43,318 nucleotides of DNA. It comes from Actinomycetota bacterium (GTDB lineage: Bacteria > Actinomycetota > UBA4738 > CALAEC01). Below are positions 7,201 through 22,325 of the stretch, one piece after another (the stretch's first letter is position 1; every line of letters begins with the position of its first letter). The notes beneath the pieces are model-generated. The model made no database searches. It was given only the letters and a program-made list of their open reading frames with translations, and was not told the origin of the DNA. Made by a program: the position numbers and the translations under genes. Location: positions 1 to 43,318 of the forward strand of contig DAITPV010000001.1 of NCBI GenBank assembly GCA_036833435.1, in the 5' to 3' direction.

Positions 7201-7810
7201 CGGATACGAGGGCCAGGGCCCGGAACACTCGAGCGCTCGCCTCGAACGCTTCCTCCAACTGGCCGCTGAGGACAACATGCAGGTCGTGGTCCCGAGTACC
7301 CCGGCTCAGTTCTTCCACGTGCTGAGGCGCCAGGCCTTGAAGGAGCGAAAGAAGCCACTTGTGGTGTTCACGCCGAAGAGCCTGCTTCGGATGAAGGAGA
7401 CGTTCAGCGAAGCCTCAGCGCTGACCGAGGTCCGGTTCCAACCAGTCCTGCCGGACCCGGATCCCCCGAAGAACGTGGAGCGCGTCGTGTTGTGCCAGGG
7501 CAAGTTCTTCTGGGACCTCCTCAACGGCCGGGAGGACAAGCCCGTGGCCCTGATCCGAGTGGAGGAGCCTTACCCGTTCCCCAAGAAGGACCTGGAGAGG
7601 GAGCTGGAGAAGTACTCCGGAGCCGAAGTGATCTGGGCCCAGGAAGAACCCGAGAACATGGGCAGCTGGCCGTTCATGGAGCGCGAACTCCGCAAGCTCA
7701 GCCTCGAGCCGAAGGCCGTGACCCGCGAGGAAAGCGCCAGCCCAGCCACCGGCAGCTTCAATCTGGATGGTGACGAACATGCGACTCTGCTCCGCACAAC
7801 GCTGGGGTAA
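4214..7810 (+). CDS. kgd: multifunctional 2-oxoglutarate dehydrogenase/decarboxylase E1 with N-terminal E2-like succinyltransferase domain (actinobacterial Kgd type)
   Basis: 1198 aa. The N-terminus FGPNTWLVEELYRQYQEDPQSVSETWREFF is Kgd/SucA-like. It is followed by an acyltransferase core (LTLTSTYDHRVIQGAESGEFL) and a full TPP-dependent E1 (HRGRLDVL, GDAAFAGQGVV, WEAQFGDF). Confidence 0.95.
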   Translation: MAKRVDREGFGPNTWLVEELYRQYQEDPQSVSETWREFFEDYVPSSGDGQGARPEARAAEAPASSEPPPAKEAPEPAAATLSEQGARPPEAEKAELLTGIPAVIAKRMEESLEVPTATSVRTVNAKLLEVNRGILNNHLKRHQGGKMSFTHIIAYAVVRALTEMPGMNVTYAEKDGKPAVTRHDHVNLGLAVDVKREDGTRVLLVPVVKEADTLEFASFHHTYEELIQRTNRNKLTPDDFAGATHTITNPGTLGTVQSVPRLMAGQAAIIGVGRIGYPSEFAGADEDTLAELGVGKTLTLTSTYDHRVIQGAESGEFLALVEQLLLGKGVFYERIFRAMHVPYVAVQWRQDERPERGTIEEAEQHMRLRQLIQMYRVRGHLIADLDPLEQRDPTMHPELDPATYGFTIWDLDRTFATGGFGGQREMKLRDILAILRDAYCRTATVEYMHMQDPDQKEWIQEHSEGVDTTLPREDKLRILSKLGEVEALEQFLHKRYMGQRRYSLEGSESLVPILDAVLSAAADQDVVESVMGMSHRGRLDVLTSIVGKSYSDLFREFEGALPLDLPQGSGDVKYHVGAEGKFTGTSGRDIKVTVASNPSHLEAVDPVVEGMARAKLDLVGRPDEAPVLPILIHGDAAFAGQGVVAETLNLSALHGFGTGGTVHVIVNNQLGFTTGSDYGRSSTYASDVAKMVQAPIWHVNGDDPEACVRVARLAFAFRQRFHKDVVIDMWCYRKWGHNEGDDPSYTQPLMYRKIKDLRTIRKRYVELLVNRGDLSVEEAEEALEEFKQRLEQAFEEIPREEKEAPPKLERQKPAPAEQKPVETAVARDKLDEIVQAITTVPEGFHVHPKLEKWLEQRRHALDEDAVDWSLAEALAFGTLVSEGRTVRLSGQDSRRGTFSQRHSVLVDQETGEEYTPLKKLEENGDGKFFIYDSLLSEFAVLGFEYGYSVANLDALVQWEAQFGDFINEAQVVVDLFIAAGEDKWGQTSGVTLLLPHGYEGQGPEHSSARLERFLQLAAEDNMQVVVPSTPAQFFHVLRRQALKERKKPLVVFTPKSLLRMKETFSEASALTEVRFQPVLPDPDPPKNVERVVLCQGKFFWDLLNGREDKPVALIRVEEPYPFPKKDLERELEKYSGAEVIWAQEEPENMGSWPFMERELRKLSLEPKAVTREESASPATGSFNLDGDEHATLLRTTLG

Positions 7811-7827: not shown

Positions 7828-9711
7828 TTGCCTAGACAGAGTCTCACCAAACCCGAGACTTGGCAGATCGCGGAACTTGAAGACTCCCTTGCCGACGTTC
7901 CACAGCGAAATAGACGACTCGAACTCCCCCGGTTTCAACGTTCGATAGTCTGGGACGAACCCCAGCAGAGGGATCTCATCGCATCGTTGCAGCAAGGCTA
8001 TCCGATCGGATCGCTTCTCTTGTACGAACGGGGAAGCGAGGCCGGTAACGTCAAGCGCTATCTTCTTGTAGATGGGCTTCAGCGTACGACTGCGATCAGG
8101 AACTACCTGCGCGAACCTTTGAACTTTGCGTCCATCCATCACCTTTCCCTCGAGCGTCTCGAGCCGGCCAAGGCGACGATCCAGGAGTTGCTGGGCGTGG
8201 CGGACGCTGGCGCTCTTAACCGAGCGATCGATAACTGGATGGTTGGAACAAGAACGCTCCGAGCGGCCGACGGATACTCATCCCATGGCTTCCTTGAGAC
8301 GCTCGCCAGTGAACTCCAGATTGGACCTCCTGATTCTCCGGAACTACTCTACGAAGCGATTGATCCCCTTCTTGACGAGATCCGCGAGCAAGTCGACATT
8401 CGACGGATGTCCTTGCCGATAATCATCTACGAGGGTGATGAAAGCCACCTACCAGACATCTTCGAGCGAATCAACGCGCGCGGAACCGCACTCAGCAAGT
8501 ACGACATCTACGCGGCCAGCTGGGTCGATCAGGAAACGCGAATCGAAAACACCAAAATACGGGATGCGATCGATGAGAAGTATGAGGAACTTCTTGAAAG
8601 CGGATACTCAATACATGGCTTGGAGCAGGATGGTGAGCGCGCATACAGTTTGTTCGAGTACCTCTTTGGGTTGGGTAAGGTGATCTCCCAGGAGTATCCC
8701 CGCCTCTTCTCTGCCAAATCAGATCCAACCGAAACCGAATCCATCGGCTTCACTCTGGTAACCGTGGTGAACCAGATGCGCCTTGCGGAGATGCCTCGCT
8801 TGCCCGGCCGTCTACCGCGCGACCCTCAGGGCCGAATTGATCCTTCCCAGTTCGAGGAGCCCCTCTTTGACGCCATCAACAGGGTGGATGAATGTCTAAG
8901 GCCCTTCTTGGGAATCGCCTTGAACCGGCGAACGGGACCTCCCTCGGTGGGCCACACCGAGTATCAAATTGCATCACTCATCGCTAGGGCACTTGCAGGA
9001 CGGTTCGTGTCCCGCACCTGGGAGGAACGCCGAGATTGGGAAGAAGAATGGGCGACTATGAGCACTAGCCTGCCTCAGCACTATCTCTATGACATCTTGT
9101 TGCAAAACTGGAGGGGCTCTGGAGATACCAGGCTTTTTGACATGACTTGGAGAGAGGAACCTGTAGGCACCTTCCGTCTCTCAGCCCACTACTCGCGCCC
9201 CATCCCTAGGAAAGAATGGGACGAGGCCCTAGGTCTCTGGTTTCGTGAGCAAACCCAACGCGAGCAACGGTCCCGTCCGAAAGTTCGAGCAGCAGACAAG
9301 GTCTTCCTCAGGTACGTCTACTCCGGGATCGTTAGTTACCTGCAAGATGCGCGCGACACGTTTGAGCTTGAGCATCTCTATCCCGTTAGCAGGCTCCGAA
9401 GTCTCATCCGTACGGATGAGCCAGGCTGGCCGATCAGCTCGGTGGCAAATCTCGCACTCTTCGACTGGATCCTGAACCGTGAGAAGTCGAAGCTGACTAT
9501 CCGAGAATACCTCGAGAGAATTGATGATGACACCGAACGAGGAAGGGTCGCCGATCGAGTCCGGAGTTTTCTGCTCTGTGAGATCCACGACGTGGAGATA
9601 CCTCGAGAGAATGCCACGGATGTCCTGACGCGTGAACAATACGAAAGCTTCCTGATACGTCGCTATGATCGGATGAAATCGCAGCTCTATGAGAATCTCG
9701 GGATTGGGTAA
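7828..9711 (+). CDS. GmrSD-like type IV (modification-dependent) restriction enzyme: N-terminal DUF262 (ParB-like) plus C-terminal DUF1524 His-Me finger nuclease
   Basis: N-terminus LPRFQRSIVWDEPQQRDLIASLQQGYPIGSLLLY and LLVDGLQRTTAI match the DGQQR-type DUF262 motif. C-terminus FELEHLYPVS...SVANLALFDWILNREKSKLT matches the DUF1524 H..P / NL..N pattern. TTG start 17 nt after the kgd stop. The lower-GC region begins here. Confidence 0.8.
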   Translation: MPRQSLTKPETWQIAELEDSLADVPQRNRRLELPRFQRSIVWDEPQQRDLIASLQQGYPIGSLLLYERGSEAGNVKRYLLVDGLQRTTAIRNYLREPLNFASIHHLSLERLEPAKATIQELLGVADAGALNRAIDNWMVGTRTLRAADGYSSHGFLETLASELQIGPPDSPELLYEAIDPLLDEIREQVDIRRMSLPIIIYEGDESHLPDIFERINARGTALSKYDIYAASWVDQETRIENTKIRDAIDEKYEELLESGYSIHGLEQDGERAYSLFEYLFGLGKVISQEYPRLFSAKSDPTETESIGFTLVTVVNQMRLAEMPRLPGRLPRDPQGRIDPSQFEEPLFDAINRVDECLRPFLGIALNRRTGPPSVGHTEYQIASLIARALAGRFVSRTWEERRDWEEEWATMSTSLPQHYLYDILLQNWRGSGDTRLFDMTWREEPVGTFRLSAHYSRPIPRKEWDEALGLWFREQTQREQRSRPKVRAADKVFLRYVYSGIVSYLQDARDTFELEHLYPVSRLRSLIRTDEPGWPISSVANLALFDWILNREKSKLTIREYLERIDDDTERGRVADRVRSFLLCEIHDVEIPRENATDVLTREQYESFLIRRYDRMKSQLYENLGIG

Positions 9712-9816: not shown

Positions 9817-10887
9817 TTGACAGCGCAACCTCTTCGATTCGATCAAAAGGGATGGGAGGCAGCTACCACATGGCAGGGAAGGCCTCCGACACCCTCCCAG
9901 ACATGGGCCCTCCTCCAAGATCCCCGCCTACCTCGCCTGTTCCGAGAGCAAGTCGCGCGTTCTGCCGCAAAGTCACCCACCCTATTAGGGGCGTTCGCCC
10001 AATCCAGGGCTGCATCTGGGCGTTCCCAGCAAGAAATCATCAAGGATGTGCAAAGGCTGACCGGTCGAAGCATTCGGGTGCAAACGGCGGCCCGGCTCCT
10101 AACCACCCGGACACAGCTCGGCTCATGGAAGATTCGCTTCACTAACCTTGTATCAGGCCGTTTCACGGAGCTACTGTTCGAGCGATCCTTTCGACCAAAG
10201 CTTGAGTCCCTCCGTCTCCAGCTGCATGAAGAGACCGGCCAGCGAAACTACCTTGATTATCGGATTTCCGCCGACCCTGATTTTGAGATAGGGATCAATC
10301 TAAAGAACGCTGGTGTCCAGTATCGGGAGTCAGCCAAATGGGTCGGTCTGCATCCTGAGGATACCCTTCCGATTGCTACCTACAAGATTTTTGGCTCTGA
10401 AGTGGCCAGGATCCCCCCTCTCATCTACGTCTTTCTCGTGGACTGGACATTGCTCGAGCGACTACGAGCAATCTACTGGACGAAACTACTCAACGATCAG
10501 GAGAGAGCCGTCTTTCGCTTCATCGCAAGAGCAAGAGCCATTCCTCGAAATGTGGAGGATGCGTTCATTGACGGGACCGCAGGCCGCGGACTGGCCAGGT
10601 TGACTAGGCTGTTGGGCTACGCAAGCCTTGAACCTTCCGAGTTACCGTTTCGTGCCATCTCGGCGGGCAAGTGCCGTCGTATCTTCTATGACCATCACGA
10701 CCGAAGCCCGTACGTTTATAGGCGTCGAATGAACACGGATCCGAACGTTCACATAAGTGTCTCGGAGGAGACTCTGAGTTTCGCCGTGTTTGTTGACAAG
10801 TACCTCGCTTCGGCAAAGAGTCGCCGCGACCTTCTTACGGAGCTGCGCCACACCATCCACCTACGAGTCGTTTCTCCCAGTGTTTGA
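9817..10887 (+). CDS. hypothetical protein; positional candidate for the type II restriction endonuclease partner of the adjacent m5C methyltransferase
   Basis: 356-aa ORF convergent with the dcm-like gene; the two stops are 4 nt apart, a classic R/M layout. A possible PD-(D/E)xK-like stretch (LDYRISADPDFEIGINLKN) is weak. I recognise no family. The TTG start is uncertain. Confidence 0.4.
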   Translation: MTAQPLRFDQKGWEAATTWQGRPPTPSQTWALLQDPRLPRLFREQVARSAAKSPTLLGAFAQSRAASGRSQQEIIKDVQRLTGRSIRVQTAARLLTTRTQLGSWKIRFTNLVSGRFTELLFERSFRPKLESLRLQLHEETGQRNYLDYRISADPDFEIGINLKNAGVQYRESAKWVGLHPEDTLPIATYKIFGSEVARIPPLIYVFLVDWTLLERLRAIYWTKLLNDQERAVFRFIARARAIPRNVEDAFIDGTAGRGLARLTRLLGYASLEPSELPFRAISAGKCRRIFYDHHDRSPYVYRRRMNTDPNVHISVSEETLSFAVFVDKYLASAKSRRDLLTELRHTIHLRVVSPSV

Positions 10888-10891
10888 CTCT

Positions 10892-12001
10892 TCAAATGGC
10901 GACGAGTTCCCCCTGAACTCCCGACGGACGAAAACCCTCCTCGAGCTGATGCCGCATGGCGACCCCGATGGTCCGAGCGAGCGGGGGAGGTACTGCATTG
11001 CCTACTTGAACCTGAATCGCACGACGGGTTCCAGCGAATCGAAAATCGTCGGGGAATCCGTGAAGCCGCCTGAGTTCCGGAACGCGTAACCGTCGGTTCT
11101 CCCAGTGGAAGGGTCCAACGTACGGACCGGGCTGCGCCTGGATAGTGCTCGCGGGTCTCGATGGATCCAGCTTGAGTAGAAACGTCCAATACCTAGATCG
11201 CCACTCGAATATCGGGTGGGGATGCCCTTCGTGAGCCGTGAAGTAGAGATAGTTTCTTCCGGGAGGAACCCCCGGAAGAAGGTGCCCGAACTTGCCGCCA
11301 ACGACCTCCTCTGGCTCGGGCGACGTGACCAAGTCTTCAAACACTTGCCCCGACGTCACGTGCGGAAGCAAATCCCCCAAATTCTCGGGTGGGCGCCTAC
11401 GTTCGTGTTCACCCCAATGTGTGGGGGGTGGAAACCTCAGTGGTTGATTCTCTCTGGATCCGATTAGAAAAACACGCTGTCGGTTCTGCGGAACCCCGTA
11501 ATCAGCGGCGTTTAGCACGGCGGCAGTGAGCGAGTAGCCAAGCTTGCGAATACCTTCCTTCAGGCCCGTAAAGAAGGGTGAGGATTGATTACGGTAAGCG
11601 AGGCCAAACACATTCTCCATTACGAACGCTCGTGGCCGAAGAGCGTCCAAGAAGCGAAGATAGTCCCACAAAAGACCAGCGCGGGGGTCTCGCCCCTGTC
11701 TCTTGTATTCGAGGTGAAAACCCGACTTGGAGAAGGCAACACACGGAGGGCCTCCCAGAAGAAGGTCCACCTCGCCAATGGCCACGTCTAGATCCCGCAT
11801 GACCTGTTCGGGATCCAGCCGAGTAATGTCCTGGGGGCGTAAGTGGCCCAAGTCAGGGAAATACTTCCGGTTCAGATCAAGTGTCTCGACAGCTGTTTGC
11901 TCATTTTCGACCGAGTAGACGACTGAAAAACCCGCCTGCTCGAAACCCAGGTCAAGTCCTCCCGCTCCAGCAAAGAGGCTTACTGCTGATCGCTGCGTCA
12001 T
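10892..12001 (-). CDS. dcm: DNA (cytosine-5)-methyltransferase
   Basis: Motif I SLFAGAGGLDLGF, motif IV GGPPCVAFS, motif VI FVMENV, motif VIII QNRQRVFLIG and motif X GNAVPPPLA are all present. The ATG overlaps the vsr stop as ATGA. Confidence 0.92.
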   Translation of the reverse strand: MTQRSAVSLFAGAGGLDLGFEQAGFSVVYSVENEQTAVETLDLNRKYFPDLGHLRPQDITRLDPEQVMRDLDVAIGEVDLLLGGPPCVAFSKSGFHLEYKRQGRDPRAGLLWDYLRFLDALRPRAFVMENVFGLAYRNQSSPFFTGLKEGIRKLGYSLTAAVLNAADYGVPQNRQRVFLIGSRENQPLRFPPPTHWGEHERRRPPENLGDLLPHVTSGQVFEDLVTSPEPEEVVGGKFGHLLPGVPPGRNYLYFTAHEGHPHPIFEWRSRYWTFLLKLDPSRPASTIQAQPGPYVGPFHWENRRLRVPELRRLHGFPDDFRFAGTRRAIQVQVGNAVPPPLARTIGVAMRHQLEEGFRPSGVQGELVAI

Positions 12002-12447
12002 CTTGAAGCAATCCTCTGCCGTACCGCCTGCACGATGCGATCCGCCGCCTCCACGGGATCCTCATGCTCCCACACGCGGATCGGCATCCAGTCTGCTGCC
12101 ACGAGAAGGGCATCATTCCGTGAATCCCGGGCTCGATTCACCTGAATCTTGGTTCTCCAGTATTCAGCGTTCACCCGCGGAAAGGTGAAGTGTTTGGGAC
12201 AGCCATGCCAATAGCAGCCATCAACGAAGACAGCGACGCGAGCCTTTGCGAAAACGAGGTCCGCGGTACCAACGTCCACGAACGGCCGGCGGGCCACGCG
12301 ATAGCGAAGACCGGAACGATGAACCTGGGCTCTGATCGCCAGCTCCGGCCTCGTGTCCTTCTTGCGATTCCCTCTCATAACCGCACGCACTCCCGCTGAT
12401 GAGGCCCAAGGCACATATGGCTGAGGGGCTGCGCCCGTGAATGACAT
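11998..12447 (-). CDS. vsr: very short patch repair (T:G mismatch) endonuclease
   Basis: RKKDTRPELAIRAQVHRSGLRYRV...ADLVFAKARVAVFVDGCYWHGCPKH...NAEYWRTKI is the canonical Vsr pattern. Confidence 0.92.
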   Translation of the reverse strand: MSFTGAAPQPYVPWASSAGVRAVMRGNRKKDTRPELAIRAQVHRSGLRYRVARRPFVDVGTADLVFAKARVAVFVDGCYWHGCPKHFTFPRVNAEYWRTKIQVNRARDSRNDALLVAADWMPIRVWEHEDPVEAADRIVQAVRQRIASR

Positions 12448-12531
12448 CGTCGTGATTCTAAGTGCCTGGACTAGGCAGGCGCTAGCCCGATCCGGCGTTG
12501 CTTGCGGGACTTGTTAGCTATCAGGGCCTAG

Positions 12532-12560
12532 TTGACAAACGGCGCTTAGTTGGTTAAGGT
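12532..12560 (+). promoter_or_regulatory. putative sigma-70-type promoter for the 12591-17802 operon
   Basis: TTGACA (12532-12537), 17-nt spacer, TAAGGT (12555-12560). It is followed by the SD AGAGGAGGAGG (12578-12588) and the GTG start at 12591. It lies in the divergent gap between vsr and the DGQHR gene. Confidence 0.4.
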
Positions 12561-12590
12561 CCTCCCCCAAGACTCGCAGAGGAGGAGGCC

Positions 12591-13880
12591 GTGGCGGTTC
12601 AGAATTCGATCCCTTCGGGTTACGCGGAGACGGACGATTACATCGGAGTCGCACACCAGCAGGATCGGCTGCGGCTAGTCACGGTGCAGCTCCCATGGCC
12701 AGCACTAGTAAAAATGGTGAAGCTCCCCGATCCGAGCCGCCAAACCGACTACAACCGACCCCTGCGGCCCGGGCATGCTCAAAAATTCATGCAATACATC
12801 GATGTCGTGGATCAGCCCTATACGCCGCCGATTGCCCTCTTCACAGACCCTGCAAATCTGGACGTCCAAGAGATCAAAGGGCTTCCTCAGTCGATAGGCA
12901 ACGTCCGGTTCGTGCTGGCCAAGTTCATCCGCTCAGCCCGGGATCAAGTTCACATCCTCGACGGACAGCACCGCATCTTCGGGGGGCACCTCCTAGAAGC
13001 CAAGTACCAGGAGGACCTCGCAAGCGCCCGCGAGCAATATCGACGAGCTGAGAAGTTCGAAGGTACTGAACTCGTCGCTGAAGCCCGTGACCGGGTGCAG
13101 AGGATTCAAGACAAGATCGCCCGGTTTGGAAGCATGACTGTCACTGTGCAGATCGCCCTCACGGGGGATCGTGGGGTTGCAAAACAGATCTTCGCCGATG
13201 TCGCCGATAACGCGCTAGGAATTTCTCGTTCGATCCTAAGCGAGTTTTCCACACGATCCGCCTTCAATCGGGCTGCGCAGGAACTGGCCCAGAAGGATCT
13301 CGCCGGTGTGGTCGACAACGTCAAGGATCGGATGTCGCGATCAAACCCTCACTGGCTCAGCCTCAAGGACGTGGTCAATGTCGTGCAAGGCCTTGAACTG
13401 CCGCTTGCTAAGCGCTGGTCCCACAAACTAGAGGAAAAGCTGGACGAGGGAAGAATATACAAGCAAGGCGCGGTCTTTTTCGCGGGACTTGCGGAGGCGT
13501 TCCCCGACGTCCGCCTTGTTCTCGATGGCGAACTCAGCGGTCCAGATCTGCGACTCGGGGGGGAGCAACAGAGCCTGCTGGGCTCAACAACAATGATTCG
13601 AGTTCTAGCCTCGGCCTACCGGGTCCTACGTGACGGCGACGAACACCACGGCCCCTTGCAACATGACGAGATTGTTGGCTTCTTCGCCTCCCTACCGATG
13701 CAAGCTGGATTTACGGGAGAGACGAGGGAAGACGCCCAGCCATTGCTCGACGCCCGTTGGCTTGAGACAGGAAAGTTCAGCTACCCGTACGTGGCCCCTG
13801 TGGCTAGAACGCAGGACATCGAGGAACTGACCGAGTTCATCGTGGCATGGACTAGGGAACGAAGCGAGACCGAAACCTAG
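12591..13880 (+). CDS. DGQHR-domain (DndB-like, ParB-fold) protein
   Basis: ILDGQHRIFGG is the eponymous DGQHR motif of the DndB family. 429 aa, GTG start behind a strong SD. No dndA/C/D/E genes are present in the window. Confidence 0.7.
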   Translation: MAVQNSIPSGYAETDDYIGVAHQQDRLRLVTVQLPWPALVKMVKLPDPSRQTDYNRPLRPGHAQKFMQYIDVVDQPYTPPIALFTDPANLDVQEIKGLPQSIGNVRFVLAKFIRSARDQVHILDGQHRIFGGHLLEAKYQEDLASAREQYRRAEKFEGTELVAEARDRVQRIQDKIARFGSMTVTVQIALTGDRGVAKQIFADVADNALGISRSILSEFSTRSAFNRAAQELAQKDLAGVVDNVKDRMSRSNPHWLSLKDVVNVVQGLELPLAKRWSHKLEEKLDEGRIYKQGAVFFAGLAEAFPDVRLVLDGELSGPDLRLGGEQQSLLGSTTMIRVLASAYRVLRDGDEHHGPLQHDEIVGFFASLPMQAGFTGETREDAQPLLDARWLETGKFSYPYVAPVARTQDIEELTEFIVAWTRERSETET

Positions 13881-13895
13881 GGAAGGGAGGACGAT

Positions 13896-14276
13896 GTGTC
13901 GGACAGAAAGACGGTATTCATCGCCTTTGCCAAGGAAGACGAGGGGATCCGCAATCTATTCACCGGTCAACGTGTGCACCCTAAGACGCCCTTCGAATTC
14001 ATCGACATGGCAGTCAAGGAGCCCTACAAAAGCGAGTGGAAACAGAAGGTGCGTTCGCGAATCAAGCGCAGCGATGGTGTCATCGCGCTGGTCTCCTCGA
14101 ACACGCCGTCAGCAGATGGCGAACTCTGGGAGATCAAGTGTGCGGTCGAGGAAGACCAGCCGTTGGTCGGCATCTGGATCGAAGACAAGTACCGGACGAA
14201 GCCATCGGTGATGGGAACTACTGCATGCAAGAACTGGACCTGGCAAAACGTGGCTGATTTTATCGACAGCCTGTAA
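13896..14276 (+). CDS. ThsB-like TIR-like domain protein (DUF1863 / MTH538 TIR-like family)
   Basis: 126 aa. KTVFIAFAKEDEGIRNLFTGQ...TPFEFIDMAVKEPYKSEWKQKVRSRIKRSDGVIALVSSNT...GELWEIKCAVEEDQPLVGIWI follows the family pattern (FisF..eD, fef.D.s, W.....I..sd.vi.l.s..T, W-E-I..A). The putative catalytic Glu79 codon is at 14130-14132. GTG start with SD AGGGAGGA, 15 nt after the previous gene. Confidence 0.75.
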   Translation: MSDRKTVFIAFAKEDEGIRNLFTGQRVHPKTPFEFIDMAVKEPYKSEWKQKVRSRIKRSDGVIALVSSNTPSADGELWEIKCAVEEDQPLVGIWIEDKYRTKPSVMGTTACKNWTWQNVADFIDSL

Positions 14277-14286
14277 GGGAGACGTC

Positions 14287-15237
14287 GTGAAACGCGCGCT
14301 CCTGATCGGTGTAGACGAGTACACGAACTTCCCTACCTTGACGGGTTGCGTAAGTGACGTGCTCGCTCTGGAACCCCTTCTATCCCAAGACGAGGATGGG
14401 AGTCCCAATTTCGACTGTCAAGTTAATGCCAGCGTAGATGTGACAGAGCGGGATGAGCTTATCGAGGCGTTACGAAGTCTTTTCGCACCCGGAGCCGACA
14501 TAGCCCTCCTGTACTTCGCAGGTCACGGAGCTGAGATCGACGGCGACGTGGTCATTTGTTCAACGGATGGGACGACCTCCTCGCCAGGGATACCCCTCGC
14601 CCAGGTTCTCGGCTTCGTTCAATCCTCGTCCGTAGGGGAGGTCATTCTGCTGTTGGACTGTTGCTTCTCGGGAGCTGCGGGCGGCGTCCCTCAGCTCGGT
14701 CTTAGCACCGCGGCTATTCGTGACGGTGTATCGATCTTGGCGGCTAGTAGGCCGGAACAGACGGCCGCGGAGGCACCGACGGGGCGGGGAGCGTTTTCAA
14801 CGTACTTGTGCGGGGCTCTGGGAGGCGGCGCGGCCGATGTCGTTGGCAAGGTGACTCTCGCGGGGATATACGCCTATCTCTCCGAATCGTTTGGGGCGTG
14901 GGACCAGCGACCGACTTTCAAATCGAATGTCGACCGGCTTCACGAGATCCGTCGTTGTAGACCTGCGGTGCCCCTGCAGGAGTTACGTCAGCTGCCTGAG
15001 ATCTTTCCAAGTGCAGACGAACAAGTGTCGCTGGATCCATCGTACGAGCCTACTGAGGAACCCAAGGATGACGAACATGAGGCTGTCTTCGCAATTCTTC
15101 AACGGTGCCGCGCGGCGAAGCTTGTGGAGCCGGTCGGCCATGACCACATGTACTATGCAGCCCTCTACGGCCTTTCGTGTCGTCTAACACAGCTCGGAAA
15201 ACACTATTGGCGGCTGGCCGAGCAGGGTCGACTGTGA
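14287..15237 (+). CDS. caspase-like (peptidase C14 family) cysteine protease with an uncharacterised C-terminal domain
   Basis: ALLIGVDEYTNFPTLTGCVSD, then LLYFAGHGAE (catalytic His80) and ILLLDCCFSGAAG (catalytic Cys125/126), which is the caspase/metacaspase His-Cys dyad context. GTG start with SD AAGGGAG, 10 nt after the TIR gene stop. Confidence 0.8.
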   Translation: MKRALLIGVDEYTNFPTLTGCVSDVLALEPLLSQDEDGSPNFDCQVNASVDVTERDELIEALRSLFAPGADIALLYFAGHGAEIDGDVVICSTDGTTSSPGIPLAQVLGFVQSSSVGEVILLLDCCFSGAAGGVPQLGLSTAAIRDGVSILAASRPEQTAAEAPTGRGAFSTYLCGALGGGAADVVGKVTLAGIYAYLSESFGAWDQRPTFKSNVDRLHEIRRCRPAVPLQELRQLPEIFPSADEQVSLDPSYEPTEEPKDDEHEAVFAILQRCRAAKLVEPVGHDHMYYAALYGLSCRLTQLGKHYWRLAEQGRL

Positions 15238-15707
15238 CGGTTGTGGGTGCCACAGGGCACCAGCAGATTCCCGGACCAGCAATCGAGTTCGTTCGAACGA
15301 AGATTGGTTCCGTCCTCGATCAATCCGGTCAGTTCACGGGGGTCTGCTGTCTAGCCGCCGGGGCCGACCAGCTCTTTGCGCGGGCCGTACTAGAACGCGG
15401 AGGCTTCTTGCACGCGATAATCCCTTCAGAAGGATACGAGGCTACGTTTGCGAGCAAGACCGATCGCGACACATATGTGTCTCTGCTACAGCGAGCGGAC
15501 ATTGTCGAACGCTTGCCCTTCCCTAGACCAAGTGAGGACGCTTTTCTGGCAGGAGGAAAGCGGGTAGCAGACGAGGCAAATGTCATCGTGGCGATCTGGG
15601 ACGGAAAGCCTGCCCGAGGCAAAGGAGGAACCGCCGACGTGGTCGCTTACGCGCGTGAGCGTCGCAAGAGGGTCGTTGTAATCTGGCCCCATGGACTGGA
15701 TCGATAG
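15234..15707 (+). CDS. standalone SLOG-like (Smf/DprA-LOG superfamily, MoCo-carrier/YpsA-like) putative nucleotide-ligand-binding protein
   Basis: VTVVGATGHQQIPG (glycine-rich loop after strand 1), CLAAGADQLFARAVLERGG, and ANVIVAIWDGKPARGKGGTADVVAYARERRKRVVVI (GGT motif) fit the SLOG Rossmann pattern. I prefer the GTG at 15234, which overlaps the caspase stop as GTGA, over the track start at 15177, which lies inside the caspase gene. Confidence 0.55.
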   Translation: MTVVGATGHQQIPGPAIEFVRTKIGSVLDQSGQFTGVCCLAAGADQLFARAVLERGGFLHAIIPSEGYEATFASKTDRDTYVSLLQRADIVERLPFPRPSEDAFLAGGKRVADEANVIVAIWDGKPARGKGGTADVVAYARERRKRVVVIWPHGLDR

Positions 15708-15750
15708 GATCAACCGCGGGGAGGGGACCAGCTTGAAGGGAGCGCATCAC

Positions 15751-16122
15751 ATGCCGGGAGAAGGGCGAGAGATCTTGAAGCGTCCTTTCCTCTATCAATT
15801 CGCTGAACCTGTCTCCGGAGAGATCCGGAGCGATACGAGGATTACCAAAATGCCAGAGACCACCGACGATGAGGGCGGACGACGCAAGCATATCCAGCGA
15901 CGTCACGCGACGCCCTTCCTAACAAGAACCGCTGAAGTGGCGCCGGGGCCTGTGGCCAATCGAACAATACTCACGCGCGCACGCGAAACAACCGACGATG
16001 AGCCCCGACAACTACGGTGGCTGAGGAGCACGCCTTTTGTCCAGCAAGTCCCGAGTCTCGGGGCGCGAAAGTCCAGGGGCAGGACCATTGTCACCGAGGC
16101 TCGGGAGACTACCGACGACTGA
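15751..16122 (+). CDS. putative multi-core graspetide (omega-ester RiPP) precursor with three leader-plus-core repeats
   Basis: Three units share the same pattern: RPFLYQFAEPVSGEIRSDTRITKMPETTDDE, TPFLTRTAEVAPGPVANRTILTRARETTDDE and TPFVQQVPSLGARKSRGRTIVTEARETTDD*. The PF(L/V) segment resembles the microviridin PFFARFL leader helix. The core T-x-x-T-x-x-x-E-T-T-D-D-E resembles T-x-K-x-P-S-D-x-E-E. It lies immediately upstream of an ATP-grasp maturase. ATG at 15751 has SD GAAGGGAG; an alternative ATG at 15691 overlaps the SLOG gene end. Confidence 0.6.
   Translation: MPGEGREILKRPFLYQFAEPVSGEIRSDTRITKMPETTDDEGGRRKHIQRRHATPFLTRTAEVAPGPVANRTILTRARETTDDEPRQLRWLRSTPFVQQVPSLGARKSRGRTIVTEARETTDD
15781..16119 (+). 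repeat. three tandem in-frame coding repeats (about 30-31 codons each, at 15781-15873, 15910-16002 and 16030-16119) separated by Arg/Lys-rich linkers
   Basis: Alignment of the translated units is given above. The linkers are GGRRKHIQRRHA and PRQLRWLRS. At the DNA level, ccagagaccaccgacgatgag, cgcgaaacaaccgacgatgag and cgggagactaccgacgactga are related. Confidence 0.75.
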
Positions 16123-17089
16123 GCGAGACGCGGACAAGAAGCACAAGTCCAAGCCTACGATCTTGTTGGTGGCCCACGGAGTCGACGAGCACTCGTCTCA
16201 CCTCGAGTCTCTGCTTCGGGCGCGAGGCCACGCAAGGGTCACTCGGATTTCCACCGATATACTTCCGAACGGGGACTTAACCTGGTCCCCAGGAAAGAAC
16301 CTCATTCTCGGCGACGATCATGTTCCGCTTTACGGTGCGGGCCTATGGCGTCGACCAGGCTTTCCCTCGGTTTCGGACTATGCAAGTGAATTTCGGGATT
16401 TTGCCGTCTCAGAATGCCTAGATGCTTTCGAGGGAGCGGTCTTGGCCAATTCCATCACATGGCTGACACACCCATCCGTCCTGACATACGCAGAGCTGAA
16501 ACTGATCCAGCTCCAGGTCGCACGCCGCCTAGGCATCACGATCCCAGCCACCCTAGTGACTAACTCGGCCGATAAGGCAACTAGATTTGCCCAGAAGCAT
16601 CAGCAAGTCGTCGTCAAACCCGTCAGATATGGCCTCCTCAATAACGACGCCGCTCGCCCCCTCGTGGCATGGACTAGCTCGGTATCCGAGGAGGATCTTC
16701 AGGAACTCAAAGGGCCCCCAGTCATTGTCCAGGAACGAATCGACGCCGAAGCGCATTTGCGTGTCGTAACGATTGGCCAGCGCACGTTTGCCGCAGCCCT
16801 CCGGACTGCCGAACTCGACTGGCGGTCAGAACTCTCAAACCACGAGAGTTTCGCTCCCGTCGCTGATCTCGATCTAATGAGACTTCTTGAGGACCAGGCT
16901 CAGCGAGTCGCTCGCGTCCTCCAGCTTGGCTATTCAGCTCAGGATTGGGTTCTCGCACGAAGCGGTAAGTTGTTCTTCCTCGAGGCCAACCCCAACGGCC
17001 AATGGCTCTTCCTCGACGACGCGTTCTCCGGGCAGATCTCGGAGTTCCTGGCTGCAGAGCTTGAAGCCTTGGCGACCGCGGTCACATGA
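16037..17089 (+). CDS. ATP-grasp ribosomal peptide maturase (MvdC/MvdD-like macrocyclase)
   Basis: The sequence follows the pattern of RiPP ATP-grasp ligases: WRRPGFPS, AELKLIQLQVARRLGITIPATLVTN, VVVKPV, VIVQERIDAEAHLRVVTIG, LDWRSE and GYSAQDWVLARSGKLFFLEANPNGQWLFLD. The start is uncertain. TTG 16037 has a GAGGAG SD 8 nt upstream but overlaps precursor repeat 3 by 86 nt. TTG/GTG at 16163-16169 would give MLVAHG... without overlap but without a clear SD. Confidence 0.8.
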   Translation: MSSKSRVSGRESPGAGPLSPRLGRLPTTERDADKKHKSKPTILLVAHGVDEHSSHLESLLRARGHARVTRISTDILPNGDLTWSPGKNLILGDDHVPLYGAGLWRRPGFPSVSDYASEFRDFAVSECLDAFEGAVLANSITWLTHPSVLTYAELKLIQLQVARRLGITIPATLVTNSADKATRFAQKHQQVVVKPVRYGLLNNDAARPLVAWTSSVSEEDLQELKGPPVIVQERIDAEAHLRVVTIGQRTFAAALRTAELDWRSELSNHESFAPVADLDLMRLLEDQAQRVARVLQLGYSAQDWVLARSGKLFFLEANPNGQWLFLDDAFSGQISEFLAAELEALATAVT

Positions 17090-17802
17090 ACGAGACCTGG
17101 CGGCGGCTTCGCGCATACCTGACGGGTAACTCGGAGGTTGCCGAGGACTTGGCGATCCCGGCTGTCGAGGACGTTCCTTGGGTTCAGGCGGCCGCGCAGG
17201 ACCCCGAAAGTGCTGACTACGCAGTCGAGGCAGCGAAACGCAGCGCGGATTTTGCGAATTCAGCCGTCAGTCAGGTTCAAGACAAGGCCTCTGCCCTGCT
17301 AAGCGTCACCCTGGTCCTGATTCCGTTTGCAGCCGGAGCCTTGGCTGTCGCCTCGTCTCGAGAGAACTCGTGGCTTCGTGTGATCTCGATTGGATGTTTC
17401 GCCTTCGTAGCCCTCGCCCTGGCGTGGGCGGCTTTGCGTGCGTTCTTAGCGTCCGGATCAGTACTTGGAGGAGGACTCAACATCGCGCGCCTTTCACGCT
17501 CAGGTGATGACTCCGCTGCATCGCTAAAGACCAGGGAGGCCCAGACATGGCACTGGTCTGCGCAGGTCGCGATGGAGGTCGCCACTCGCAGATCTGGAGA
17601 CCTGTTTTCTGCACGGCGGGCCCTCATCATCGCGCTTGGATTTGCCGGCCTGGGGACCTTCGCTCTCTCCGTATCCGAGGAGAGAGCTGGCCAACCTCCG
17701 ACTGTGCCGATCGAGCGCGAATCACCGTCTGGAATGAAGACGCACAGCGATTGCGCAGTCGCAGCAACAGGGGCCTCTCCACCGGTTTGCTTGGCTCCCT
17801 GA
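17086..17802 (+). CDS. 3-TM membrane protein, unknown function (candidate membrane effector or exporter/immunity component)
   Basis: The ATG overlaps the ATP-grasp stop as ATGA. A soluble helical N-terminus ends in VQDKASALL and runs into TM1 (LSVTLVLIPFAAGALAV). TM2 is ISIGCFAFVALALAWAALRAFL and TM3 is ALIIALGFAGLGTFALSV. This topology recalls SLATT/Pycsar-type TM effectors, but that is impression only. Confidence 0.55.
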   Translation: MNETWRRLRAYLTGNSEVAEDLAIPAVEDVPWVQAAAQDPESADYAVEAAKRSADFANSAVSQVQDKASALLSVTLVLIPFAAGALAVASSRENSWLRVISIGCFAFVALALAWAALRAFLASGSVLGGGLNIARLSRSGDDSAASLKTREAQTWHWSAQVAMEVATRRSGDLFSARRALIIALGFAGLGTFALSVSEERAGQPPTVPIERESPSGMKTHSDCAVAATGASPPVCLAP

Positions 17803-18180
17803 TCCAAGGCCTGACCGATTCTTTTCTTCAGGTCCTCAGGTTTCCTCACCGGTCCGAGCGGTCGGAAGTTCGTAGTCCTCCGAAGGGTTTCTCAGTCATG
17901 CTCCGGACGCTTGCCGACGATCCAACCTTACAACGCCCTCCTTCTACGAAATCTTTCTCGCGCTCAGCTTCCGGCGGGTGGTGAATGGCGAGTCTATTGA
18001 TTGCATTCCTCTTCCCTCAGATATACAGGCGAACGTCGACCGAATCGTCCGGACCGCTAGCGAAAAAATCTCATCTGCTCTCGCCAGGGAAGCAATTGCT
18101 GCGGAAATTGAAGCGGAGGCCACGTAGGTAATCTCGTCTGGGAAGCTGCGTCACCTCATTACTCTTGCACCTGGCCTGCT

Positions 18181-18648
18181 TTAGTCGTTTCTACCCTGCC
18201 TCTCCAGGTAGATGGGACTTCTAAGGAACCGCCTCGGATGTCGACCTGCAAACATGAGTTCGTGGCGCCGGATCAGGGTCCCTTGCTTGTTCACAAGGTT
18301 GTGTCCTTCGGCGAGAAAATGCCTAATCAATGCGCGCTCCACCAACCTAAGGACTGTATTTAGTTGCTGGCCCTGGCGAGGTCGAACGACACCGGCCAAC
18401 ACGATTCTGGCTCCGGTTTGGGCGGTTCTCAGGTTCTCCACCAGATTGACGTTGTTCAGTTGCTGGTCTACTCGCCTTCGAATCGAACCGCTCGCTTGCC
18501 CTATGTAGATTGCCTCGTAGCGGTTGCCCCAATGCCGGGCGAAGACGTAAACGCCGGGTCTCGTTGGAAGGCTAATGAGGTCGACCGCATAGCCGATACC
18601 CTCTCGTCTGAGGGGAATCGGGCGACTCCACTCAACATAGAGTTTCAT
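18181..18648 (-). CDS. small GIY-YIG-like nuclease domain protein
   Basis: PGVYVFARHWGNRYEAIYIGQASGSIRRRVDQ matches GIY-x10-YIG followed by the conserved Arg. Downstream LVERALIRHF...HNLVNKQG supplies the Glu and Asn positions. It is the last low-GC gene of the island. Confidence 0.55.
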   Translation of the reverse strand: MKLYVEWSRPIPLRREGIGYAVDLISLPTRPGVYVFARHWGNRYEAIYIGQASGSIRRRVDQQLNNVNLVENLRTAQTGARIVLAGVVRPRQGQQLNTVLRLVERALIRHFLAEGHNLVNKQGTLIRRHELMFAGRHPRRFLRSPIYLERQGRND

Positions 18649-19232: not shown

Positions 19233-22200
19233 GTGGCGTCCAACCACCGTACGCTCTTCACCGTGGAGACTCGCAAGACTGTCACCTTTGTGTTCAACGA
19301 CGTAGTCGGGTCGACCTCACTCGGCGAACAACTCGATCCGGAGCCTCTTCGGCGGGTGATGACCACTTACTTTGAGAGGATGCGGGCTGTCCTCGAGCGG
19401 CATGGGGGCAACGTGGAGAAGTACATCGGGGACGCGATCGTGGCCGTGTTCGGGATCCCCGAGGTGCACGAGGATGATGCCCTTCGGGCCGTCCGGGCGG
19501 CTTCCGAGATGCGCTCCACGCTCGATGAACTCAACCGCGAGCTCGAGGACCGGCACGGCGTCCGGATCGAGGCACGGACCGGGGTCAACACCGGCGAGGT
19601 ACTGGCCCAGGAGACTCAGGCCGACACCCCCCTGACCGCGGACGTGACGAACACCGCCGCCCGGCTCGAGCAGGCCGCCGGGACCGGCGAGATCCTCATC
19701 GGCGAGTCCACCTACCGACTGGTCCGGGACGCCGTCACCGTCGAGCCCGCCGGCCCACTGGAACTTAAGGGCAAGGCCGCCCCCCAGACCGCCTGGCGGC
19801 TCCTCGAAATCACTCCAGAGGCGCCCGGCGTGGCCCGGAGGCTAGACTCCCCCATCGTCGGGCGGGACCGCGAGCTCTCCCTCCTCCGAGAAGCGTTCGA
19901 TCGAGCCACCCAAGGGCCCTCCTGTCGGCTAGTAACCGTCATCGGCCCCCCCGGCGTCGGAAAGACCCGCCTCAGCGCGGAGCTCATCTCCTGGCTGGAG
20001 GGCCGGGCCCGTGTCCTCCAGGGCCGTTGCCTCCCCTACGGAGATGGGATCACCTACTGGCCCGTTGCCGAGGTGATCCGGGAGGCCGGCGCCATCAGAG
20101 AGGAGGAGGCCGCCGAGGAGGCCGTCGCCAAGATCGCCTCCCTGTGCGGCGACGATGAGGACACCGCGACGATCGCGGAGCGGCTGACCTCGGTCATCGG
20201 CCTGACCGACAACCTCGCCCCGCCGCAGGAGACGTTCTGGGCGGTGCGCCGGCTCCTCGAGGCCATGGCCCGGCACGAGCCGCTGGCGGTGGTGTTCGAC
20301 GACATCCACTGGGGCGAGGCCACGTTTCTCGACCTGGTCGAGTACCTGGCCGGATGGAGCACCGGTGCGCCGATCCTCCTCCTCTGTCTGACCCGCCCCG
20401 ACCTCATGGACTCCAGGCCCGCGTGGGGCACCGCCGTCCCCGACGCGACCTCCATCCGGCTCGACCCGCTCACCGAAGAGGACAGCGAGCGGCTGATCGA
20501 CAACCTACTGGGCCGGGCTCCCCTCGACGAAGAGGTCCGGGCCCGGATCCGCCTAGCCGCGGAGGGCAACCCACTGTTCGTGGAGGAGATCCTCCGAATG
20601 CTCGTCGACGACGGGCTCCTCCAGCTCGACGACGGCCGGTGGGGTGCCGCGGGCGATCTCGAGTCCATCTCCATCCCCCCCACGATCAGCGCGCTGCTGT
20701 CCGCCCGGCTGGAGCGCCTGTCGCGCGAAGAGCTGGCGGTGGTCCAGCGGGCCGCGGTGGTGGGGAAGGTGTTCTGGTGGGGAGCGGTGGCCGAGCTCTC
20801 CCCCGTAGCCGAACAGTCCACGGTGGGGGGTCACCTCCAGGCCCTGGTCCGCAAGGAGCTGGTCCGTCCCGATCGTTCCCGGTTCACAGACGAAGACGCT
20901 TTCCGCTTCAGCCACATCCTCATCCGGGACGCGGCATACGCGGGGACGACCAAAGAGCTCCGAGCCGAGCTCCACGAGGGGTTCGCCGACTGGGTGGAGC
21001 GACGAACGGCCGACCGGATGTCCGAGTTCGAGGAGGTCGTCGGGTATCACCTGGAGCAGGCTCATCGATGCCGAACGGAGCTCGGCCTCGACGGCGAGGC
21101 GATCCCTGGACTGGCCGCGCGGGCGGCGCGCCATCTGGCCTCGGCCGGAGAGCGGGCCCTGAAGCGCGTGGACATCCACGCGGCGATCAACCTCCTGTCT
21201 CGAGCGACGCAGCTCATGGACCGGGGTGACTCCGAGCGCGTGGAGCTCCTCATCGACCTGGTGGAGGCCCTCATGGAGGCCGGCCACATGGACCAGGCGC
21301 GAGAGGTGGTCGAGGAGGCCGCCGCCGAAGTCGAGGCCCGGTCCGACGATCGCCTGGCCGCGCACGTGCTCATGGGCCGGTGGTACATCCGACGGAGCGA
21401 GGGACCGGGGGAGTTCGAGCCCGCCGAGCGTGATGGCCTCGGCGCGGCGGAGGTCTTCCGAACTCATGGAGACGAGCTGGGATTGGCCCGGGCCTGGCAG
21501 ATGGTGGGTGTGGCGAGGTGGTGGGCCGGTCGGGCCGGAGACGCGGAGGACGCGCTAGAGCGGGCCCGTCAGCACGCCCGAGCCGCCGGCGACCCCCGGA
21601 AGGAAGCGGAGAGCCTGCTAACCCTCAGCGCCGTCGTGGCGCAGGGTCCCCGCCCCACCGAGGAGGGGGCCAGCTGGGCGGAAGCGATCCTGGAGGAGCA
21701 CGCGGGCACCCGCACCGTGGAGGCAGCCATGCTCCATACGCTCGCGCACATCCGGGCCTGGCAGGGCCAGTTCGACGAGGCTCGGAGCCTCGCCCGCCGG
21801 TACCGGGAGATCCTCCGGGAGAACGGCCAGGAGGCCAACTGGGCCGACTCCTCAGAGTGCGAGGGTGACGTCCTCCTCATGGCCGGCGACGTCGAGGGAG
21901 CGATCCGGCTCATGGAGGAGGGCCAGCGCCGGTTCGAGGAACTGAATATCACCGACACCACGATCCTCCCCTTCCTGGCCAACACGCTGGTGGCCGCGGG
22001 TCGCTGGGAGGAGGCCGAAGCTCCCGCCCTTCGGTCCATCGAGGGAGGTCATCCCCTGTGGAGAACGCTGGGGCAGACCGTCCTCGCCAGGATACGGGCC
22101 CGCCGGGGGAGAGGAGAGGAGGCCGAGCGGTTGGCTCGGGAGGCGCTCGCCGCCACCCGGAGGTCCGACTATCCGCTCTGGAAGGGCCGCGCGGCTCTGG

Positions 22201-22325
22201 GCCTCGCCGAGGTCCTCGAGCTCCTCGGGAAGGACGGAGAGGTCACCTCGCTCCGCGAGTACGCCCGCCAGGAGTTCGAGCGGAAAGGTGCCAAGGTGCG
22301 GGCCGAGCAGCTCGGCTTCTCCTGA
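19233..22325 (+). CDS. class III adenylate/guanylate cyclase domain fused to a STAND/AAA ATPase and TPR-like C-terminal region
   Basis: VTFVFNDVVGSTSLGEQL...VEKYIGDAIVAVFG...GVNTGEV is cyclase-type. VIGPPGVGKTRL is a Walker A, and VVFDDIHW is a Walker B-like motif. A long helical repeat region follows. Confidence 0.88.
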   Translation: MASNHRTLFTVETRKTVTFVFNDVVGSTSLGEQLDPEPLRRVMTTYFERMRAVLERHGGNVEKYIGDAIVAVFGIPEVHEDDALRAVRAASEMRSTLDELNRELEDRHGVRIEARTGVNTGEVLAQETQADTPLTADVTNTAARLEQAAGTGEILIGESTYRLVRDAVTVEPAGPLELKGKAAPQTAWRLLEITPEAPGVARRLDSPIVGRDRELSLLREAFDRATQGPSCRLVTVIGPPGVGKTRLSAELISWLEGRARVLQGRCLPYGDGITYWPVAEVIREAGAIREEEAAEEAVAKIASLCGDDEDTATIAERLTSVIGLTDNLAPPQETFWAVRRLLEAMARHEPLAVVFDDIHWGEATFLDLVEYLAGWSTGAPILLLCLTRPDLMDSRPAWGTAVPDATSIRLDPLTEEDSERLIDNLLGRAPLDEEVRARIRLAAEGNPLFVEEILRMLVDDGLLQLDDGRWGAAGDLESISIPPTISALLSARLERLSREELAVVQRAAVVGKVFWWGAVAELSPVAEQSTVGGHLQALVRKELVRPDRSRFTDEDAFRFSHILIRDAAYAGTTKELRAELHEGFADWVERRTADRMSEFEEVVGYHLEQAHRCRTELGLDGEAIPGLAARAARHLASAGERALKRVDIHAAINLLSRATQLMDRGDSERVELLIDLVEALMEAGHMDQAREVVEEAAAEVEARSDDRLAAHVLMGRWYIRRSEGPGEFEPAERDGLGAAEVFRTHGDELGLARAWQMVGVARWWAGRAGDAEDALERARQHARAAGDPRKEAESLLTLSAVVAQGPRPTEEGASWAEAILEEHAGTRTVEAAMLHTLAHIRAWQGQFDEARSLARRYREILRENGQEANWADSSECEGDVLLMAGDVEGAIRLMEEGQRRFEELNITDTTILPFLANTLVAAGRWEEAEAPALRSIEGGHPLWRTLGQTVLARIRARRGRGEEAERLAREALAATRRSDYPLWKGRAALGLAEVLELLGKDGEVTSLREYARQEFERKGAKVRAEQLGFS

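Follow-up and report, generated by a model that had tools for sequence, protein, structure and literature searches.

A type IV Thoeris system with a newly noted SLOG-fold accessory gene, beside a new small graspetide family, in a low-GC island of an Actinomycetota bacterium

Type IV Thoeris, a recently described link of TIR signalling to caspase-type cell death, has a two-gene architecture formed by a TIR protein (ThsB) plus a protease of caspase-like type, ThsE (Rousset et al. 2025, bioRxiv 10.1101/2024.10.24.620036). In that work, the signal of the studied systems was N7-cADPR (cADPR, cyclic ADP-ribose), the caspase cleaved after Arg and its C-terminal domain was proposed as the sensor, the E79Q mutation of PsTIR abolished defence (C129 of PsCaspase was also mutated), and the tested two-gene systems defended without any SLOG gene. 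Two further groups of described systems resemble parts of the locus studied here, namely type I Thoeris, whose effector ThsA is a SIR2–SLOG protein sensing 3'cADPR, and the multi-core graspetide clusters, of the plesiocin/thuringinin type and of Bacteroidota families (Makarova et al. 2022, PMC8939145). We analysed seven consecutive genes at positions 12532–17802 of contig DAITPV010000001.1 from an Actinomycetota bacterium (assembly GCA_036833435.1), the window being the entire 43.3-kb contig (43,318 nucleotides). This locus is a type IV Thoeris system with a newly noted SLOG accessory gene, located beside a new small family of graspetides, which are peptides made on the ribosome and modified after translation (RiPPs), matured by ATP-grasp enzymes.

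A sequence-only reading of the same stretch had proposed one coupled seven-gene conflict system, or else two stacked modules. Our comparison of gene neighbourhoods does not agree with the first proposal and splits the stretch into three modules; the stacking proposed by the second is retained, with three units instead of two. The first module (M1) comprises a cytosine methyltransferase gene, a Vsr endonuclease gene and the DndB-like gene 1, the second (M2) comprises the TIR, caspase and SLOG genes (genes 2 to 4), and the third (M3) comprises a graspetide-type precursor, an ATP-grasp enzyme and a membrane protein (genes 5 to 7). We consider, with a probability of roughly 60%, that these are three autonomous cassettes packed head-to-tail on one strand within a low-GC defence island, and that they are probably read through as one or few transcripts.

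The assignments made earlier to DndB, TIR and C14 protease families for genes 1, 2 and 3 were all supported by profile searches (Table 1). The ThsB_TIR score of gene 2 lies above the Pfam cutoff of 21.2 bits, and its catalytic Glu79, found within an LWEI motif, carries the same residue number as E79 of PsTIR. Gene 3 additionally matched the NCBIfam model caspase_w_EACC1 (5.8e-29, below that model's cutoff); its His80/Cys126 dyad is invariant across 18 aligned homologues, and the homologue alignment also shows a conserved C-terminal domain of ~100 aa. The residues singled out in the sequence-only reading (TIR E79, caspase H80 and C126) are present and correspond to those mutated by Rousset et al. 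(PsTIR E79, PsCaspase C129). In addition, the TIR is 52% identical to the TIR genes of two-gene TIR and caspase operons on plasmids of Escherichia coli (pCREC-591_1) and Pseudomonas aeruginosa, and the caspase is 39–41% identical to the caspases of the same operons over residues 1–314/316, i.e., 99–100% of its length. Judged by this architecture and by the intact catalytic residues, the second module is a type IV Thoeris system, in line with the earlier suggestion that the TIR and caspase pair represents a Thoeris variant. It shares with the described systems a short ThsB-type TIR with Glu at E79, an adjacent His/Cys caspase of ~316 aa with a common C-terminal domain, the location in a defence island and the identity (52% for the TIR, about 40% for the caspase) to the E. 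coli and Pseudomonas operons. In contrast to these systems, the window adds a third, translationally coupled gene encoding a stand-alone SLOG-fold protein. Searches of the PDB by sequence and by profile found no solved structure of a ThsE protein, the protease domain being matched only by metacaspases and MALT1.

By homology, the ThsB-type TIR would respond to infection by turning NAD+ into a cyclic ADP-ribose signal of the N7-cADPR kind. This signal would act through the C-terminal domain of the caspase, leading to promiscuous Arg-specific proteolysis of cell proteins, by which the infection would be aborted.

The third gene of this module (gene 4), which had been called SLOG-like from its letters, has no match in Pfam. 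The call is upheld at the level of fold, since the AlphaFold model (built on 36 homologues) reached a predicted local distance difference test score (pLDDT) of 96.6, and Foldseek against the PDB returned YpsA (1.3e-9, TM-score 0.78), followed by ShosA, DprA, the Moco carrier protein, LOG and the SLOG domain of ThsA. The motifs AAGADQ and GGTAD, both invariant in the homologue alignment, fit the Gly-rich nucleotide-binding loops of a Rossmann-like SLOG fold. Relatives of gene 4 gave weak Pfam matches, to DprA in 9 of 36 and to YpsA in 7 of 36, and these results indicate that gene 4 is a distinct SLOG family outside the Pfam thresholds for YpsA and DprA. Compared with type I Thoeris, the locus likewise places a SLOG fold in an operon with a ThsB-type TIR, and the SLOG domain of ThsA is among the structural matches of gene 4 (7uxs, E 2e-4). 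In contrast, gene 4 consists of the SLOG fold only, without a fused SIR2 or other effector domain (no SIR2 occurs in any of the seven proteins), its best match is YpsA and not ThsA, and the effector of the system is a caspase with its own presumed sensor domain.

Using the 808 homologues of gene 4 and the 10 kb around the SLOG gene in 82 distinct loci, we found a caspase homologue upstream of the SLOG gene in 32 loci, and immediately upstream in all of these except one (L024). In most of the 32 loci, the caspase stop codon and the SLOG start overlap or are at most about 30 nt apart, as in the window, where the two genes overlap by GTGA; these loci also carry at least one small ThsB-type TIR or, in few cases, larger TIR-containing proteins. 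Their hosts include Actinomycetota, Acidobacteriota, Planctomycetota, Nitrospira, Rhodothermales, Armatimonadota, cyanobacteria, an alphaproteobacterium and a metagenome-assembled genome of Bathyarchaeia, and the Bacillus subtilis plasmid pBS72 provides a Bacillota example of the same TIR–caspase–SLOG form. Among plasmids, the caspase was matched in 131 records and the SLOG protein in 47; about 8 of the SLOG plasmid matches listed are annotated beside a caspase or belong to a plasmid that has a caspase match too.

In the sequence-only reading, the SLOG protein had been assigned the part of sensing the TIR-made signal, as in type I Thoeris. We rejected it as a primary sensor standing in for the sensor domain of the caspase, since that C-terminal domain is complete in gene 3 and since operons without SLOG exist. 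For these two reasons, and because two-gene operons defend without a SLOG gene, the comparison of gene content indicates that the SLOG protein is a conserved accessory gene and not the primary receptor. The reading that we favour is that it would bind, and perhaps hydrolyse, the ADP-ribose-derived signal; in this way, it would fix the threshold for activation or turn off the protease, in the manner of the ring nucleases of type III CRISPR. The widespread three-gene form suggests a host-encoded regulator of this signal, acting as threshold setter, buffer or off-switch, and no such regulator of a Thoeris signal is described in the literature that we searched. Indeed, we found no account of the SLOG third gene in the type IV Thoeris paper, in the systematic TIR survey, in the sponge paper or in the conflict-systems paper of Kaur et al.

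Several other arrangements were observed around these genes. Caspase–SLOG pairs are often accompanied by 2–3 ThsB-type TIR genes, on either side and on either strand (L001, L003, L004, L009, L010 and L018), and in L025, L027 and L028 the TIR companions are larger TIR-containing proteins. The position after the caspase may also hold another gene, encoding a 93–94-aa protein with an (E)H(E/A)RWAHWQ motif, as seen on the P. aeruginosa plasmid CP136985 (L090, 4002–4283) and on the Paenarthrobacter plasmid pYJN5-2 (L091, 4487–4771); these proteins weakly match the RyR domain (7.7e-4 and 2.2e-3, below cutoff). Different accessory genes thus seem able to occupy this position. As for the more distant SLOG relatives (41–45% identity; Lentzea, Actinoplanes, Streptomyces and others), they have no caspase nearby. 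A helix-turn-helix protein of the XRE type (~430 aa) lies directly upstream of a SLOG relative in 12 loci (L030 and 11 others among L029–L083), and on Caballeronia plasmids a SLOG relative is found under a gene annotated DUF4231.

The third module encodes what was proposed as a triple-repeat peptide beside its ATP-grasp maturase; the peptide was confirmed, together with an ATP-grasp that is related to RiPP maturases. Gene 5 contains three units, in which a leader-like PF(L/V) motif is followed ~15 residues later by a core of the form T-x-x-T-x3-E-T-T-D-D (Table 1). The repetition is still visible in the DNA, where 15856–15883 and 15985–16012 are 79% identical. Loops and pre-core positions are rich in Arg and Lys, nearly every core having one of these residues in its loop or just before it. 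The unit recurs, one to four times, in seven homologous precursors. Precursors of this type match no NCBIfam or Pfam model, TIGR04186 included, and gene 5 is missing from the public protein collection with either of its possible starts. Gene 6 is a predicted ATP-grasp macrocyclase with kinship to MvdC/MvdD (about 5e-32) and with invariant ATP-grasp core residues in the alignment. However, all of its NCBIfam scores fall far below the curated cutoffs (e.g., 162 vs 350 bits), and by profile scores it is related to the named ATP-grasp equivalogs without belonging to any of them. Its start codon remains ambiguous because the lengths of its close homologues (about 37 proteins of 305–331 aa, with 43–52% identity) fit the start at TTG 16163 (308 aa) while TTG 16037 (350 aa) is preceded by a good Shine–Dalgarno (SD) motif, GAGGAG, at 16023–16028. 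Note that the public record gives the 350-aa form from TTG 16037, which overlaps core 3.

The ATP-grasp enzyme would dock on the PF(L/V) motif ahead of each core and would close ester rings between Thr and Asp/Glu side chains within T-x-x-T-x3-E-T-T-D-D. The likeness to the multi-core graspetide clusters lies in the kinship of the ATP-grasp to MvdC/MvdD and SAV_5884-type enzymes, in the repeated Thr-rich and acidic cores, each placed after a PFL-type recognition motif, and in the companion membrane protein, itself uncharacterised. As an example, one multi-core family in the supplements of PMC8939145 has the similar core T-x-x-T-x3-E-x-S-D-x-D; neither ETTDD nor ETTDE occurs as a string in these supplements. 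In contrast to the described clusters, the window has an ATP-grasp below the family cutoffs, a precursor without model match and a membrane protein from a tiny, unclassified family, and the cassette sits in defence or variable islands, twice beside type IV Thoeris. On these sequence comparisons, we regard the third module as a small family that is new among the graspetides, a class already known.

Gene 7, which ends this module, belongs to no known family and is represented only 53 times in a set of 1.84 billion clustered proteins. Its model (pLDDT 89.6) contains three long helices, so that the earlier description as a protein with three transmembrane segments holds for the helices and is plausible, although unproven, for their insertion in the membrane. 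No match was found for its structure in the PDB or BFVD, nor for its sequence among plasmids. Uncharacterised membrane proteins are known to accompany graspetide clusters and are regarded as exporters (PMC8939145). The three-helix protein of the window would export the graspetide product or give immunity to it.

Searches for ATP-grasp relatives, including one of metagenomes with the ATP-grasp alignment, gave eight other loci with usable flanks (L084–L088, L100, L101 and L181). In these, a small precursor gene with 1–4 copies of a PFL…GRT-x-x-T-x3-5-E-T-(T/S)-D-(D/E) unit precedes the ATP-grasp, and a gene 7 homologue (29–45% identity) follows it in seven of the eight (eight of nine with the window), L085 being without one. 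Next to the cassette, L084 has BREX, HEPN/MNT and BrnT toxin–antitoxin genes, L088 has a Bub ubiquitin-like system, L181 has Dcm/Vsr with HATPase_c_3, and L085 and L087 have transposases. Such surroundings raise the possibility that the cassette is an anti-phage or abortive-infection system of its own, with gene 7 as a membrane-disrupting effector and the cross-linked peptide as its regulator or trigger. Wherever the flanks are readable, the cassette loci lie in a variable or defence region; the cassettes contain neither an ABC transporter nor a leader peptidase or signal peptide; gene 7 weakly matches PADLOC PycTM (8e-5), and an anti-phage function of lanthipeptide RiPPs is reported (bioRxiv 10.1101/2024.06.26.600839). 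However, the PycTM match appears in only one of five family members and gene 7 has no structural match, the membrane companions of graspetide clusters are thought to be exporters, as said above, and the sample amounts to nine loci; we regard an autonomous defence function of this cassette as doubtful.

Other roles of gene 7 were considered and found no support. As a SLATT-type (SLOG-associated) effector, it has no Pfam SLATT match beyond one DUF4231 at E=2.3, and as a PycTM effector it has nothing further than the weak match and its narrow distribution just given. A Pycsar system with the cyclase gene at 19233–22325 was discarded, since the latter is a 1030-aa cyclase–AAA–TPR protein with host-like GC, separated from gene 7 by an open reading frame (ORF) on the opposite strand, and since the PycTM match is weak.

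No TIR, caspase or SLOG gene lies near seven of the eight other graspetide cassettes, and no graspetide-cassette gene was found in the 32 genomic caspase–SLOG loci or in the four plasmid TIR/caspase operons inspected (H1, H4, H13 and H25). Within 10 kb in the 82 SLOG loci, there was no relative of the peptide or of the membrane protein and no adjacent relative of the ATP-grasp, the sole ATP-grasp match having 31% identity and lying ~8 kb away (L033). Viral contigs searched with the ATP-grasp and SLOG alignments yielded no further close graspetide cassettes and no new pairs of the two modules. Each cassette occurs as a unit elsewhere without the other and is autonomous there; obligatory coupling is therefore unlikely, and their adjacency in the window and in one more locus is most likely due to both residing, or being selected together, in defence islands and not to a biochemical pathway in common.

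Several points weigh against this reading. In the 7-kb metagenome contig L100, the exception among the eight loci, the two modules point away from each other (SLOG←caspase←TIR and peptide→ATP-grasp→membrane protein) around a shared intergenic region of ~200 bp, and form a self-contained six-gene insert between ordinary genes, with a DUF2306 membrane protein at one end and an AraC regulator and a glyoxalase at the other. Compared with the window, the Thoeris genes of L100 are 63%, 44% (caspase) and 48% identical, its graspetide genes 36%, 44% (ATP-grasp) and 29% (membrane protein), and neither module of L100 is the nearest relative of that in the window; this divergence, together with the different orientation, argues against a trivial recent copy. 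An adjacency in two of nine graspetide loci, when both cassettes are rare, is more than we would expect from random stacking, and the tight junctions of the window, with no terminator-like site on the + strand, are compatible with co-expression. Moreover, we infer the kinship of gene 2 and gene 3 to the tested PsTIR and PsCaspase only through the E. coli and Pseudomonas plasmid operons of like architecture, and the role proposed above for the SLOG protein is likewise one that we infer.

The adjacency and the tight junctions also form part of the case for a six-gene conflict system with a real biochemical link, in which the cross-linked multi-core peptide with its Arg/Lys loops would be kept in store as inhibitor, decoy or substrate for the Arg-specific caspase, and the membrane protein would be a second effector or offer a route of release. 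Protease inhibition is known of microviridin-type graspetides. Such a link would fit the adjoining of the cassettes in two diverged, differently oriented loci, one of them the self-contained insert of L100, the lack of transporter, leader peptidase and signal peptide in the graspetide cassette, and the presence of Arg or Lys at nearly every core, since the type IV caspase is Arg-specific (bioRxiv 10.1101/2024.10.24.620036). However, the same preprint shows that two-gene TIR and caspase systems defend alone, the two cassettes are found apart in all the other loci counted above, and there are two co-occurrences only, for which shared descent of a composite island is possible. We hold the six-gene system to be unlikely, and the adjacency could still reflect an inherited, rearranged composite island or the co-selection of defence-island residents. 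The same low standing applies to the detailed scheme in which the graspetide would serve type IV Thoeris as a safety-catch inhibitor or decoy, or would be released by the caspase, with gene 7 as second effector and the SLOG protein as buffer or off-switch of the signal; we offer it as a tentative idea. If the link between the two modules is functional, RiPP chemistry would be tied to the control of an immune protease and, if true, the peptide would be the first of the graspetides to form part of an immune signalling pathway in bacteria.

Between 10935 and 13850, the window aligns with the metagenome contigs L093, L094 and L095 as a ~2.9-kb block with 73% DNA identity, and this similarity stops at 13850, i.e., 30 nt before the DndB stop codon (13880) and 46 nt upstream of the TIR start. 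The layout Dcm(–)/Vsr(–)/DndB(+) is repeated in L095 and in contigs with the closest DndB homologue (89% identity), downstream of which there are a 206-aa protein, an HATPase_c_3 protein and a 704-aa protein, and no Thoeris genes; DndB homologues with 77% and 71% identity are flanked by different genes again. Neither the 82 SLOG loci (10 kb around the SLOG gene) nor any graspetide locus gave a detectable relative of gene 1. Because the DNA similarity ends near the DndB stop and the downstream genes of the relatives differ, gene 1 was assigned to the first module; on this comparative evidence, it belongs to a Dcm–Vsr–DndB block unrelated to the Thoeris genes after it. With Dnd phosphorothioation systems, gene 1 has in common the Pfam match to DndB and a DGQHR motif present letter for letter (TIGR03187 DGQHR was matched at 2.3e-13, below that model's cutoff). 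Unlike in these systems, it is linked to a Dcm-type C5 methylase and Vsr, and no dndACDE or dndFGH partners were found among the island ORFs (7.8–19.2 kb). The conserved block suggests a DndB-like protein working with the C5-methylase/Vsr pair rather than with Dnd genes.

Two further observations concern this block. The right flank of L093 and L094 (RNase H/nuoF) matches core genes of the window (28741–28985 and 30713–31234) at 72–77% identity, and the Dcm–Vsr–DndB block therefore lies at a different chromosomal site in a related genome. Pairs of an HATPase_c_3 protein and a large unknown protein recur beside Dcm/Vsr, DndB or the graspetide cassette (L181, 1673–7317; L093, 7063–11406), which suggests a common pool of island modules under reshuffling.

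The integration of all seven genes, DndB included, into one system finds its arguments in the gene junctions, which are as the sequence-only reading had given them for seven + strand ORFs, all present. Genes 1 and 2 are separated by 15 nt and genes 2 and 3 by 10 nt, whereas genes 3 and 4 overlap by GTGA (15234–15237) and genes 6 and 7 by ATGA (17086–17089). From the SLOG stop to ATG 15751 of gene 5 there are 43 nt, replaced by an overlap if ATG 15691 is used, and genes 5 and 6 overlap by 86 nt with TTG 16037 or are 40 nt apart with TTG 16163. SD-like motifs of their own precede genes 1, 2, 3 and 5, and also gene 6 if it starts at 16037, in agreement with the claim that most starts carry one. 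The claim of a single good promoter did not fare as well: a strict sigma-70 consensus scan gave 0 sites, and the candidate at 12532 fits a TANNNT-type -10 only. No terminator-like site was found on the + strand within 12300–18300, and from these signals a single transcript across the seven genes is possible and plausible. The shared strand, the short DndB/TIR junction, the one upstream promoter candidate and the lack of an internal terminator-like site would thus suit an integrated system, as would a weak DndB-family gene placed divergently beside TIR–caspase–SLOG in L003. Against this, DndB is conserved with Dcm–Vsr in a block of similar DNA that ends near its stop, the genes downstream of its closest homologues are unrelated, no relative of it was detected in the SLOG and graspetide loci, and L100 has the Thoeris and graspetide cassettes without DndB. 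The single seven-gene system is largely refuted by this neighbourhood conservation, and we consider it extremely improbable.

Table 1. Features of the island in the window (positions on the contig; values after model names are E-values)
Feature	Position	Strand	Remarks
GmrSD-type (type IV restriction) gene	7828–9711		First gene of island
C5 cytosine DNA methyltransferase (Dcm), M1	10892–12001	-	Pfam DNA_methylase 3.1e-60
Vsr very-short-patch repair endonuclease, M1	11998–12447	-	Pfam Vsr 3.9e-16
Promoter candidate	12532–12560	+	TTGACA, 17-nt spacer, TAAGGT
Gene 1, DndB/DGQHR-like, 429 aa, M1	12591–13880	+	Pfam DndB 2e-17
Gene 2, ThsB-type TIR, 126 aa, M2	13896–14276	+	Pfam ThsB_TIR 2.8e-8; PADLOC ThsB 1.2e-6
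Gene 3, caspase-like C14 protease (ThsE-like effector), 316 aa, M2	14287–15237	+	Pfam Peptidase_C14 1.1e-16
Gene 4, stand-alone SLOG-fold protein, 157 aa, M2	15234–15707	+	Fold from AlphaFold model and Foldseek
Gene 5, graspetide-type precursor, 123 aa from ATG 15751 (alternative ATG 15691), M3	15751–16122	+	SD GAAGGGAG
Core 1 of gene 5	15835–15870	+	TRITKMPETTDD
Core 2 of gene 5	15964–15999	+	TILTRARETTDD
Core 3 of gene 5	16084–16119	+	TIVTEARETTDD; directly before stop codon
Gene 6, predicted ATP-grasp RiPP macrocyclase, M3	16037 (or 16163)–17089	+	TIGR04187 2e-47
Gene 7, helical membrane protein, 238 aa, M3 third gene	17086–17802	+	No known family

The seven genes lie within an island whose GC content is 0.55–0.61 over ~7.8–19.2 kb, compared with 0.66–0.72 in the flanks, and which is bounded by a 2-oxoglutarate dehydrogenase gene (4214–7810) on one side and by the cyclase–AAA–TPR gene on the other. 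Neither tRNA genes, in a scan of the window, nor convincing direct or inverted repeats bounding the island were found. Its order is GmrSD, a 356-aa ORF, Dcm (-), Vsr (-), the seven + strand genes and a GIY-YIG-like ORF (-). The 356-aa ORF (9817–10887) matches no family and may be a partner of the Dcm methylase. At the downstream edge, the 155-aa ORF at 18181–18648 (-) shows weak similarity to GIY-YIG proteins (UvrC/Cho nuclease domain, about 5e-4 to 2e-3), and the protein encoded just beyond the island at 19233–22325, with host-like GC, combines an adenylate/guanylate cyclase with AAA_16 and TPR domains.

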